Shown here one piece after another: positions 48,581-52,482 of a stretch of DNA of 64,000 bases. The stretch comes from an uncultured Chloroflexia bacterium. GTDB lineage: Bacteria > Chloroflexota > Limnocylindria > Limnocylindrales > CSP1-4. Every line of letters starts with the position of its first letter. Position 1 is the first letter of the stretch. The notes below the pieces were generated by a model, which had not been told where the DNA came from, did no database searches, and worked only from the letters and a program-made list of their open reading frames with translations. Location of the stretch: the NCBI GenBank assembly GCA_963790955.1, contig CAWBQM010000003.1, positions 227,385-291,384 of the forward strand, in the 5' to 3' direction. The translations under genes were made by a program, and so were the position numbers.

Positions 48581-48761
48581 CGATCGAGTATACGGACCAT
48601 CGCCCGCGGCACGAAAACGGCGGGCAGGAAATGAGGCCTCGCCGAACCACACCGCCGGGGGAACGATGTCTTGAAGCGAGGCCTCGCTCGTGGGAACGAG
48701 GGCCCGCAGGTTTCGTTAGGGCAGCACATCGAGAATTGCCGGGCGCCGCTAGGATGCAGCA

Positions 48762-48856
48762 ATGCCCCCGGTCCGGCACTCGGCGTGCGGCCGCCTGGAC
48801 GGCGGCGTCAGCGAGACCGAGCTCGGGCCGGTCGGGGCGCCGCCGGTCGAGCATCG

Positions 48857-48860
<4 letters not shown>
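48762..48860 (+). CDS. Putative leaderless uORF (32 aa) coupled to cysS
   Basis: TAGGAT-N6-ATG; the stop TGA overlaps the cysS ATG (ATGA). Confidence 0.4.
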
Positions 48861-50407
<1,547 letters not shown>

Positions 50408-50436
50408 CCACCGGGCCCACCCGCGCCAGCCATGGC

Positions 50437-51441
50437 CTACGTGCCGGAGGCGATCCGTCCGGCACGGTCGACCAGGTCGAGTCGGCGTCCGAAGCGATCC
50501 AGGAGCCGGTAGAAGTTGCGCTTCGAGAGCCGATTGCGCTCGGCCTCCGGCAGACTCGTCCAGCCCCGGTGCTCGTGCCGCAGGAGTGGGAGCCTGTCCA
50601 ATGCCACTGCCCGGCGGGGCGCCGTGTCCTCGCCTTCGTCCCTGAGCACGAGGCTCCACCAGATGTCCAGGTTGCGATAGAACCGGAACTTCTCGTCGAG
50701 CGGGCCGCGCGCGGTGTAGTCGGCACGGCGGAACGCCTGGCAGTACCCGGCCACGGCATCCACCTCGCCGGCGGCCTCCTCGAACTGGCGCAGATCGGCG
50801 GACGCCAGTCCGAACGGGCCGGCAATCGCGACATCCGGCTCCTCGAGGGCGGCGACGAGCGGGCTGATGGCGTCTCCGGTCAGCTCGATGCTCGTGTCCA
50901 GGCACACGACCGTGGCCGCCGCCGCGCGCCGAATACCCGCATTGAGAGCAGCGCCATGGCCGAGGCGCTCGCTCGTCACCACCACCTCCGTGCCGATCCC
51001 CGGCGCGCCCGGGTCCGCGGCGTCGAGGGCGACCAGTGCGGCCTCTTGCTCGGCATCGAGCGCGTCACCGACGACGACGATCTGGAGACCGTCGGGCCCG
51101 TGCTCGACGAGCGATGCCAGACAGCGTTCCAGCTCGACCGCGAAGTCGGTCGCGACTAGGACGACCGAGGCGAGGCCGAGCGCGGGCTCCTGGAGCCGGG
51201 ACGGGACGTCGACGCTCCGACCATAGCGGACGAGCCCGCCACGCTCGACCGTCGGCGCATGCGCCCGCGTCAGCCGGTAGGACAGCCCGGCGTCGACGAT
51301 CTCCCAGCCGGCAGCTTCGATCTCGACTCGCAGGCGATCCGCCTCGGGCCAGTCGCGGCCGGCCCGGGCGAGCGCGCGGGCATCGGCCAGCTCGACGATC
51401 TCGGGCGGGATCGAGGCACGGCGGTCGGTCGCTGAGCTCAC
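50437..51441 (-). CDS. GT2 glycosyltransferase fused to an N-terminal CysRS-type anticodon-binding domain
   Basis: N-terminus ARAGRDWPEADRLRVEIEAAGWEIVD; GT-A core RCLASL, GHGAALNAG, LDTS, GYCQAFRR, LDEKFRFY; TATCCT-N6-GTG start. Confidence 0.8.
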   Translation of the reverse strand: MSSATDRRASIPPEIVELADARALARAGRDWPEADRLRVEIEAAGWEIVDAGLSYRLTRAHAPTVERGGLVRYGRSVDVPSRLQEPALGLASVVLVATDFAVELERCLASLVEHGPDGLQIVVVGDALDAEQEAALVALDAADPGAPGIGTEVVVTSERLGHGAALNAGIRRAAAATVVCLDTSIELTGDAISPLVAALEEPDVAIAGPFGLASADLRQFEEAAGEVDAVAGYCQAFRRADYTARGPLDEKFRFYRNLDIWWSLVLRDEGEDTAPRRAVALDRLPLLRHEHRGWTSLPEAERNRLSKRNFYRLLDRFGRRLDLVDRAGRIASGT

Positions 51442-51540: not shown

Positions 51541-52482
51541 CTATGGGGTCGCGGGCAGGCGCGTGATCCAGTACGGCGTCTGTGGCGTCGGCGGGGTCGA
51601 GAACCTGGCGTTCGCCGCCCACAGGCGGCCGGCGCTGAAGGCCGCCGTGGCAGGCACGTCGAGATCGGGCGATTCGATCTCACGCAGCACGACAGCGACC
51701 GTCAGGCTCGGCCCGAGCGCGACTGCCGCGATCCGGTTGTCGAAGTTCTGGACGACGAACAGCGTGCTGCCACGGAGCTCCAGCCCGTCGGTGTTGCTGA
51801 GTGCCGGCGAGGCTCCCGCGTGCACGTCGATGCGGGTCGCGACACCGGTCGCCGGGTCGATGCGGAACAGGTCGCCGGTGATCGTCTGGTCGGCCACCAG
51901 CCAGCCCCGAGTGGCGACAATACCGTTGAGATTGAGCTGGCCCGGGACGAATGCGAAGTCACCCGAGATCGGCAGGGTATCGATGGCCGTGGCATCGGGC
52001 AGCTGGCCGGCCGGCCCGAGCGGGATGACGTCGAGGACGTCGGCGAACGAGTCGGTGACGTACACGGCGTCGGGCGTCGCGACCAGGTCGTTCAGGAAGC
52101 CCGGTGCGAACTGGTACGCGGCCAGCAGCGCGCCGCTCGACGCGTCGTAGACGCGAACCGCGCCGGTCGGTCCACCTGCCGCCCAGACCCGGTTGTGCGC
52201 CGCCTCGTACTCGGTGCCGACCGCCACCTCGCCACTTGCGCCCGGAACGAGCACGTGCCCGACACCGGTGCGCACGTCGCCCGTCCAGATCGCGCCGTCG
52301 GCCAGCGAGCCGACGAACACGGTCGTGCCGGGACCGGCGGTGATGCCCTCGGGTTGCCAACCGAGCGGGAGCGGGATCGTCTGCGGGAAGTTCTGTGCCG
52401 CTACGGGCGCGGCGACCATGAGACCGGCGACCAGTGCCGGGAGGGCCGCTCGCACGGTGGCGAGACGCAGGCGTCGGAGCAC
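51541..52482 (-). CDS. Secreted SMP-30/gluconolactonase-like beta-propeller protein
   Basis: Signal peptide; PEGI, FLNDL, YVTDS, NGI, DGL; AGGAGG SD. Confidence 0.8.
   Translation of the reverse strand: MLRRLRLATVRAALPALVAGLMVAAPVAAQNFPQTIPLPLGWQPEGITAGPGTTVFVGSLADGAIWTGDVRTGVGHVLVPGASGEVAVGTEYEAAHNRVWAAGGPTGAVRVYDASSGALLAAYQFAPGFLNDLVATPDAVYVTDSFADVLDVIPLGPAGQLPDATAIDTLPISGDFAFVPGQLNLNGIVATRGWLVADQTITGDLFRIDPATGVATRIDVHAGASPALSNTDGLELRGSTLFVVQNFDNRIAAVALGPSLTVAVVLREIESPDLDVPATAAFSAGRLWAANARFSTPPTPQTPYWITRLPATP

Follow-up and report, generated by a model that had tools for sequence, protein, structure and literature searches.

The closest described activity to the one considered here belongs to the vertebrate glycosyltransferases QTGAL and QTMAN, which are reported to glycosylate queuosine at position 34 of tRNA-Tyr and tRNA-Asp. 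These enzymes are not known to have a targeting domain derived from an aminoacyl-tRNA synthetase (aaRS). Fusions of an aaRS with a transferase are represented by LysX (LysRS-MprF) and ErdS (AspRS-DUF2156), whose GNAT-like transferase moves an amino acid. We know of no tRNA glycosylation in bacteria, and in the abstracts surveyed it is confined to vertebrates and to queuosine. The window analysed here is a stretch of 64,000 nt from an uncultured soil Chloroflexia bacterium (GCA_963790955.1, CAWBQM010000003.1:227,385-291,384, forward strand; genome G000, 53% complete). At 50437-51441 on the minus strand it carries a gene for a GT2-type glycosyltransferase (GT) whose N-terminus resembles the anticodon-binding domain (ABD) of cysteinyl-tRNA synthetase (CysRS), and a spacer of 29 bp (50408-50436) separates its stop codon from that of a convergent CysRS gene. 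The protein belongs to a conserved family that is undescribed in the literature searched: no fusion of CysRS or any other aaRS to a glycosyltransferase was described in the full texts searched, and the ABD family PF23493 (CysS_C) likewise returned nothing relevant.

The gene, in a region of ~72% G+C, was called in the list of open reading frames (ORFs) as 334 codons with a GTG start and a stop codon at 50437-50439. Its product consists of the ABD copy (residues 8-59, 51265-51420), formed by two helices and a beta-hairpin; a beta-rich linker (residues 60-90, 51172-51264) that is common to the fused forms described below and has conserved G74 and V79-P80 ('GRSxDVPSR'); the GT-A/GT2 domain (residues 91-270, 50632-51171), delimited by PF00535, fold and column counts; and a C-terminal extension (residues 271-334, 50440-50631) with a helix at 299-317 and conserved H291, R292, R308, Y311, and R312, all encoded on the minus strand. 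The 64 residues of the extension are strongly basic (pI 11.45). An AF2 model of the whole protein showed one compact body (pLDDT 93.3, pTM 0.91). As the first-pass annotation had stated, the protein has no transmembrane (TM) segment; the maximum 19-residue hydropathy (KD19) was 1.66 and fell on core strand beta1 of the compact model.

The same annotation had reported that the N-terminus of the GT aligns without gaps to the C-terminus of the neighbouring CysRS, and BLASTP reproduced this alignment, with 18 of 43 residues identical, 29 of 43 positive, and an E value of 2e-7. The first 60 residues scored only 18.3 bits against PF23493 (E 0.0025; 17.3 bits in the genome scan), below the 23-bit cut-off, while relatives exceeded it (27.4 bits for P0203, and many others with a PF23493.2 match). 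A profile built from 88 members of the family matched the C-termini of CysRS structures in the PDB (3tqo, E 3.6e-7; 1li5 and 1u0b, E 3.9e-4; 8qhp, E 0.0091). When residues 8-57 were modelled alone (pLDDT 92.6), they folded as helix, helix, beta-hairpin, and the two best PDB matches found by Foldseek were both CysRS chains, 1u0b_B followed by 3sp1_B. The match to 1u0b_B covered 42 columns (TMq 0.75, root mean square deviation (rmsd) 1.5 Å, prob 0.97, 31% identity); the Foldseek E values of the two matches (0.52 and 1.1) were not significant, with a query of only 50 residues. Profile comparison and structure prediction thus both recovered a CysRS ABD. However, unlike in CysRS itself, this ABD stands at the N-terminus of a GT with no synthetase ahead of it.

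The gapless profile alignment with E. coli CysRS 417-446, which the alignment with Coxiella CysRS supports, places window residue r at E. coli r+401. In this register, R26, W31, D35, and R38 of the window protein correspond to R427, W432, D436, and R439 of E. coli CysRS, so that all four anticodon-contact residues are kept. A 2026 paper mutated these four E. coli residues as anticodon-interaction sites chosen from structure 1U0B, and describes Arg427 as bonding O6 of G34 (PMC13449415). A review names the G34-C35-A36 anticodon and U73 as the strongest identity elements for CysRS (PMC9976931).

Several of the anticodon-contact residues are among the best-conserved positions of the family. Across 172 sequences (the window protein, 89 stand-alone and 82 fused homologues), R22, R26, D35, G45, and D50 were 99% conserved, and in 88 stand-alone sequences the sole invariant columns were R22, R26, D35, D50, and R239. 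Among 120 close relatives, R22, R26, D35, R38, G45, and D50 were kept in every sequence, and position 31 was W (107) or F (13). In 30 close relatives, each 52-62% identical to the window protein over residues 8-57, mean column identity over this segment reached 82%, and the corresponding loci matched at 57-66% over the whole GT. Identity between ABDs was 42% for GT and neighbouring CysRS, 40% for GT and the other cysS of the genome, and 37% for the two CysRS copies, values that are uninformative for dating the duplication; the motif pattern used for ABDs caught just 7 of 90 fused proteins.

The GT domain is likewise securely placed, as the first-pass annotation had proposed. Residues 92-208 scored 42.9 bits against PF00535 (GT2; cut-off 23.3 bits), residues 88-329 have the GT-A fold, with Z scores of 19.8 for PcManGT (6yv7; rmsd 3.2 Å over 217 residues), 18.6 for GalNAc-T1, and 16.7 for SpsA (VIA), and the family profile matched 6yv7 with an E value of 1.2e-15. 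The fold is shared with generic inverting GT2 enzymes such as PcManGT (6YV7), SpsA (1H7L), K4CP, and the GalNAc-Ts (Z 16.7-19.8). However, the window protein is at most 20% identical to these (VIA), and it differs from them in its D-T-S motif in place of DxD, its Arg-rich FRFYR segment, its N-terminal ABD, and its basic tail.

Homologues of the window protein are numerous (3446 at E ≤ 0.001 among 8000 scored candidates), and a search of 1.84 billion representatives returned 1103 relatives at E ≤ 0.001, 216 of them at E ≤ 1e-30. Most matches began at query residue 8-12, and therefore include the ABD. Many of the longer homologues carry a complete synthetase ahead of it. In P0230 (736 aa), for example, PF01406 spans residues 16-325, PF23493 residues 425-463, and PF00535 residues 502-613, and the cysS equivalog was matched over positions 1-461 of 466. 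A full CysRS catalytic core was found in 90 of the 100 long proteins tested, which comprised the members of at least 650 aa from a set of 100 longer homologues, together with P0230, P0375, and P0380. These CysRS-ABD-GT2 fusions (715-850 aa; e.g., P0230, P0280, and P0348) are annotated only as 'cysteine--tRNA ligase', and their annotated sources include Dehalococcoidia, Ktedonobacterales, Roseiflexaceae, Kouleothrix, and unclassified Chloroflexota. The window protein is homologous to them over residues 8-325 at 35-43% identity and shares their D-T-S-I-E, FRFYR, and L-D motifs, and the neighbouring CysRS clusters with the synthetase cores of the fusions, apart from the other cysS of its own genome. 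In contrast to the fusions, the two halves in the window are separate, convergent genes, each with its own ABD, and the GT has lost D125, D130, H158, and R166.

On this homology, the window protein is best classified as a stand-alone form of the CysRS-ABD-GT2 fusion family and not as the product of a one-off local duplication, since the fusions occur in several Chloroflexota classes. The GT was present in 80 of the 301 sampled Chloroflexota genomes (G000 included) and in 44 of 169 genera, and seven genomes had both a long and a short form. In a tree of the ABD-GT region with 67 rows, including randomly sampled subsets of the stand-alone (38 of 89) and fused (28 of 82) sequences, a branch with a support of 99 separated 35 stand-alone rows, the window among them, from the 28 fused and four further stand-alone rows. 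The stand-alone branches were long, with a median end branch of 0.65. A distant stand-alone branch of 275-300 aa came mainly from metagenome-assembled genomes (MAGs) of Candidatus Dormibacteraeota. The Atlas had indicated that clusters combining ABD and GT2 are most frequent in Actinomycetota, but a search from the distant member P0249 returned instead MAGs of Candidatus Dormibacteraeota/Dormibacteraceae and one of Candidatus Acidoferrum.

The CysRS gene beside the GT (48857-50407, plus strand) encodes 516 aa from MTLRLRN within an ORF at 48671-50407. It scored 305.6 bits against PF01406 and 354.6 bits against TIGR00435 (340.6 in the genome scan; cut-off 340), and its own ABD (residues 463-505, 50243-50371, plus strand; PF23493, 28.5 bits) is the segment that aligns to the N-terminus of the GT. 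In 40 orthologues, R477, R481, D490, R493, G500, and D505 of this ABD were invariant, and the window paralog and its orthologues retain the Zn-Cys, HVGN, WHIEC, HHEDE, and KMAKS motifs. The first-pass annotation had described the GT gene as tail-to-tail with cysS; the convergent arrangement holds, but a second full-length cysS lies elsewhere in the genome (contig C5:20611-21993; 426 bits, TIGR00435 positions 1-465), while the window copy matches TIGR00435 positions 1-324 plus the ABD. In most genomes of the same family, cysS of the C5 type is the sole one. Judged by its motifs and this second copy, the neighbour is an extra paralog with intact catalytic motifs and not the single cysS of the genome. 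A tree of catalytic cores (50 rows, including a random 28 of the 87 fused cores; quick search, no bootstraps) placed the fused cores in one group (SH-aLRT 96) and the split paralogs, including that of the window, in another (99). Both groups, together with the plain cysS of G106 and G133, formed a clade with a support of 99, and the other cysS of our genome and of G245 fell outside it. No sequencing runs were listed for 48857-51441.

The linkage of the GT to this paralog is confined to close relatives. Of the 80 loci that best match the window GT (56-68% identity), 76 had the paralog downstream on the opposite strand, and no paralog match was found at the remaining four (L039, L052, L067, and L074). 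The next two genes were also shared, an SBP gene in 68 of the 80 loci and a peptidase gene in 64, so the adjacency sits inside a generally syntenic block. However, the linkage did not extend to the wider sample of 101 genomes at class level. In the family of the window genome (f1), the GT was present in 27 of 29 genomes, and a full-length CysRS of the paralog type (64-70% identity) in only nine (G213, G245, G269, G277, G326, G341, G356, G359, and G362). Eight of these nine paralogs were convergent with the GT and within ~1.1 kb of it, and in G245 a distance of 0.7 Mb separated the two genes. In the remaining 18 f1 genomes with a GT, just a 45-53% CysRS match or none was seen. The sister family f3, in which the GT occurred in 24 of 33 genomes, also lacked the linkage; the best CysRS match had 44-61% identity in 31 of the 33 and at least 55% in all but G348, and in G009 it was ~1 Mb from the GT. 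In family f70, 18 of 33 genomes had the GT; two CysRS matches were found in 17 of these 18, and a single match in each of the 15 genomes without GT. Both the GT and the CysRS matches lay in one open frame of 718-810 aa, that is, in a fused gene, in 11 genomes of f70 and in G305 (f71). Some of the genomes counted here are flagged as unpublished (G325 and G346 for f70; G363 and G354 for f3), and their removal alters no conclusion.

The synthetase core can thus be fused, adjacent, or absent, and the ABD-GT part is the constant unit of the family. We regard it as the functional constant because the GT persists without an extra CysRS in 18 of the 27 same-family genomes and in f3.

Based on these results, we propose that the window protein descends, as a stand-alone form, from a bifunctional CysRS-ABD-GT2 family, whose synthetase half would survive here as the convergent neighbour. 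The soluble GT-A protein would dock on the anticodon loop of tRNA(Cys) through its N-terminal copy of the CysRS ABD, which would still bind the GCA anticodon, and the rigidly joined GT domain, which has an Arg-rich pocket and ends in a basic helix, would glycosylate tRNA(Cys) with a nucleotide sugar as donor, most probably at a nucleoside of the anticodon loop or close to it. The fused enzymes would carry out this transfer on a tRNA that they hold at the same time for charging. Binding of tRNA(Cys) by the protein seems likely to us; the whole reading, in which a tRNA(Cys)-docking GT glycosylates tRNA near the anticodon loop, is put forward tentatively, as a possibility somewhat short of even chances. 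Two points make us prefer action at the anticodon loop: the ABD-GT unit can persist with no synthetase, and in the fusion the GT comes directly after the ABD. In the complex of CysRS with tRNA, the ABD lies at the anticodon end, a long way from the 3' end that carries the amino acid. The idea of a soluble GT recruited to tRNA(Cys) by a captured CysRS ABD, first raised from the window alone, thus gains partial support from the contact residues, their conservation, and the occurrence of fusions in several Chloroflexota classes.

The proposed activity would resemble that of QTGAL and QTMAN in placing a sugar on an anticodon-loop nucleoside of a specific tRNA. However, the vertebrate enzymes are reported to act on Q34 of tRNA-Tyr and tRNA-Asp, whereas the ABD in the window is of the CysRS type and the tRNA-Cys of the genome has the anticodon GCA. 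Queuosine is reported to be restricted to GUN anticodons (PMC12313893), and with GCA as the anticodon of its own tRNA-Cys, the genome would offer no queuosine-34 in this tRNA as the acceptor. The likeness to LysX and ErdS lies in the presence of an extra aaRS paralog fused to a transferase in genomes that keep a housekeeping aaRS; the difference is that the appended domain is a GT-A domain at the anticodon end and not of the DUF2156/GNAT type.

Several observations weigh against this reading. The genome has one ordinary tRNA-Cys(GCA), with U73 and A36-A37-A38, and a BLAST search with this tRNA matched 278 of the 301 genomes, almost always once each, including the single-contig, fusion-bearing genomes G106 and G160; a second or unusual tRNA-Cys was found neither in our genome nor by this search, which is blind to a very divergent tRNA. 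(The search takes in the unpublished genomes G038, G131, G168, G203, and G264, whose removal alters no conclusion.) Conserved neighbours were considered as a functional hint and rejected: in f23, YqeY, Lon-N, MFS transporter, and EF-G paralog genes lie in the vicinity of the fused gene, and PepF adjoins the stand-alone gene, and we judged these blocks, like those of the close relatives, to be ordinary synteny. Full-model searches with Foldseek and VIA returned generic GT-A/GT2 relatives only, from lists that were filled by residues 86-329 and are mute on the ABD. Further points of this kind concern the active site of the GT and the intact activation motifs of the synthetase, and each bears on an alternative explanation.

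The generic character of the structural neighbours would suit an ordinary GT2 enzyme with a non-RNA acceptor, such as a glycan, lipid, or small metabolite, in which the ABD-like hairpin, acquired fortuitously from a neighbouring cysS, serves only for structure or oligomerisation. These neighbours are GTs that act on polysaccharides and glycans, and no NCBIfam equivalog was found for the GT, the family-level matches all being generic GT2 families far under their cut-offs (MftF best, at 32.6 bits against 280, and PgaC, NodC, and EpsD). The pTM of the whole model also suggests rigid packing of the ABD against the GT domain, and such packing could account for the conservation of the ABD. However, the best-conserved residues are the anticodon contacts of CysRS, and residues retained only for packing should not fall on all four of these positions. 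Several classes have retained the architecture, with the junction at the ABD in every case. The protein lacks a TM segment, and its gene has no cluster of polysaccharide genes nearby. We consider this explanation rather unlikely.

The active site departs from the canonical GT2 pattern in two respects. First, DxD is not present; D182-T-S184 takes its place, and L258-D259 the place of the usual 'ED'. These positions had been noted from the window alone and were located correctly; DTS is a conserved family motif rather than a degenerate DxD, and it is the uridine-binding motif that has changed in the stand-alone forms. In the window clade (n = 120), D182 was kept in 118, S184 and E186 in 119 each (D-[TS]-S-x-E), Y233 in 118, R238 and R239 in 120, D249-E250 in 120, S263 in 119, and R267 in 120; FRFYR at 252-256 was kept in 112-120, with Y255 and R256 in 120, D259 was invariant, and R171 was also conserved. 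In the fused forms (n = 82), D182 was found in 68, S184 in 65, E186 in 82, and D259 in 82, D-T-S-I-E being the commonest pattern, and Y233, R239, F252-R-F-Y-R256, and S263 were kept as well. By these counts, DTS and LD are conserved family traits rather than signs of local decay, and the conserved GT pocket, which is acidic and rich in Arg, counts in favour of the proposed reading. D259 stands, by motif position alone, where we presume the acidic catalytic base ('ED' region) to be.

Second, the N-terminal nucleotide motif of the VVDxGSxD type is not present in the window protein, which has VVGDALDA. The fused forms keep VVDNGS[TS]D at 125-130, H158, G161, and R166-N167 in 79-82 of 82 sequences, and in the window protein D125 is replaced by G, D130 by A, H158 by E, and R166 by L. 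We take these four to be the uridine-binding residues of GT2 enzymes. The window clade has A/G at 125, D/N at 126 (119 of 120), P at 128, A/E at 158, and L at 166. Among all 89 stand-alone representatives, position 125 is mostly Ala, D130, H158, and R166 are not conserved, and D182 and D259 occur in only 44 and 49, respectively. The uridine-site residues thus appear to be lost in the window protein and in most stand-alone forms, and donor binding may be altered or lost.

This loss keeps in play a pseudo-enzyme reading, in which the stand-alone protein, left over after the fusion split, is a non-catalytic binding factor for tRNA(Cys) or CysRS with a chaperone, sequestering, or regulatory role, and only the fused forms are enzymes. 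The low retention of D182 and D259 in the wider stand-alone set and the long stand-alone branches fit such a history. However, the window clade constrains D182, S184, E186, Y255, R256, and D259 almost without exception, and the D/N at 126 could stand in for D125. A pseudo-glycosyltransferase is, in our judgement, unlikely.

The last and main point against glycosylation near the anticodon loop is that the activation motifs (Zn-Cys, HIGN, WHIEC, HHEDE, and KMAKS) were intact in 31 of 31 fused and 8 of 8 split CysRS copies, as a pure modifier of a tRNA nucleoside would not obviously need them. That the extra CysRS keeps every one of these motifs fits a role for Cys-tRNA itself. The ABD might thus bring Cys-tRNA(Cys), supplied by the fused, the adjacent, or the housekeeping CysRS, and the GT might glycosylate the esterified cysteine at its thiol or amine, or make a cysteine-sugar conjugate such as a low-molecular-weight thiol. 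The fused CysRS was always an extra copy where this was checked (another, full-length cysS is present in each of G106, G160, and G279), and the pairing of two CysRS matches with the GT in f70 suggests selection for a dedicated supply of Cys-tRNA. LysX and ErdS are aaRS-transferase fusions that consume their own aminoacyl-tRNA, and GT2 S-glycosyltransferases such as SunS exist. On the other hand, the stand-alone ABD-GT persists in the f1 and f3 genomes without an extra CysRS, the GT in the fusion follows the domain at the anticodon end of the tRNA, a separate MshC-like ligase is already present in several of these genomes, and we know of no GT-A enzyme that uses aminoacyl-tRNA. This makes an aminoacyl-tRNA-dependent reaction improbable. 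More doubtful still is its specific form in which both the CysRS-GT2 enzymes and their stand-alone descendants glycosylate tRNA-esterified cysteine and the product feeds ribosomal insertion or a tRNA-dependent route to a cysteine-sugar thiol; if true, this would be the first glycosyltransferase acting on aminoacyl-tRNA.

The window paralog itself bears comparison with MshC, the mycothiol cysteine ligase, which is also a CysRS paralog and a CysRS-derived enzyme tied to sugar chemistry. However, the window paralog scored 214.7 bits against TIGR03447, far below the cut-off of 485.1 bits, and keeps its ABD, and a separate MshC-like protein of 412-420 aa occurs in related genomes.

The fusion of this enzyme to an entire synthetase in related bacteria points to a hitherto undescribed connection of tRNA-Cys with glycosylation. 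The ABD-GT unit is found in three arrangements, fused to a whole CysRS with intact catalytic motifs, adjacent to one, or alone. If the ABD still reads GCA, nature would here have redeployed the recognition module of an aaRS to direct another enzyme to a single tRNA, and a novel modification on tRNA(Cys) or Cys-tRNA would be expected. The results also correct annotation: hundreds of proteins of 715-850 aa labelled 'cysteine--tRNA ligase' are predicted to be bifunctional CysRS + GT2 proteins, and stand-alone GTs are sometimes mislabelled 'cysteinyl-tRNA synthetase'.

Additional CysRS-like genes were encountered in these genomes. Short paralogs of 412-420 aa without ABD were found in G009 (L142:74-1336), G106, G133, and G279, and G106, G160, and G279 each carry a plain cysS, a fusion, and a short paralog. 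The G009 protein matched MshC end-to-end at 382 bits, under the 485-bit cut-off, which suggests a mycothiol-like cysteine ligase in Chloroflexota. At least nine genomes of f3 have a CysRS-like match of the short-paralog kind (41-44% identity) at a distance of 6-26 kb from their stand-alone GT. As for the full-length copies, the cysS on C5 falls outside the 99-supported clade of catalytic cores, and the cysS found in every same-family genome may be a more divergent, possibly acquired, copy. In G326 (C3:895679-897203), the paralog beside the GT is split into two overlapping pieces (query 1-236 and 234-508), which points to a frameshift, from either decay or an assembly error. The helical region of the window paralog contains a Pro/Gly-rich insertion (residues ~340-400, 49874-50056, plus strand) that was delimited in an alignment of 40 orthologues; it resembles low complexity, yet R364, P365, G367, D386, and P391 are invariant in these orthologues.

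In addition to tRNA-Cys, ARAGORN made some odd calls in the window genome, namely a 'tRNA-???' with a four-base anticodon (tcgg; C2:14252-14326), an 87-nt tRNA-Glu(ctc) (C8:12193-12279), and a 98-nt tRNA-Ala(ggc) (C10:271095-271192), which could be artefacts, introns, or odd tRNAs. The ABD-GT unit was also seen fused to other domains in P0271 (597 aa), P0214 (595 aa), and P0272 (720 aa), with an N-terminal Rce1-like CAAX protease (PF02517) or a peroxidase-type domain (PF03098); these may be gene-call run-ons in high-GC DNA. Upstream of the GT, nothing was conserved among the 80 related loci. In the window this position is taken by an ORF of 313 aa (51541-52482, minus strand) with no Pfam match and no counterpart in those loci, which can be described as a lineage-specific insertion beside an otherwise syntenic block.

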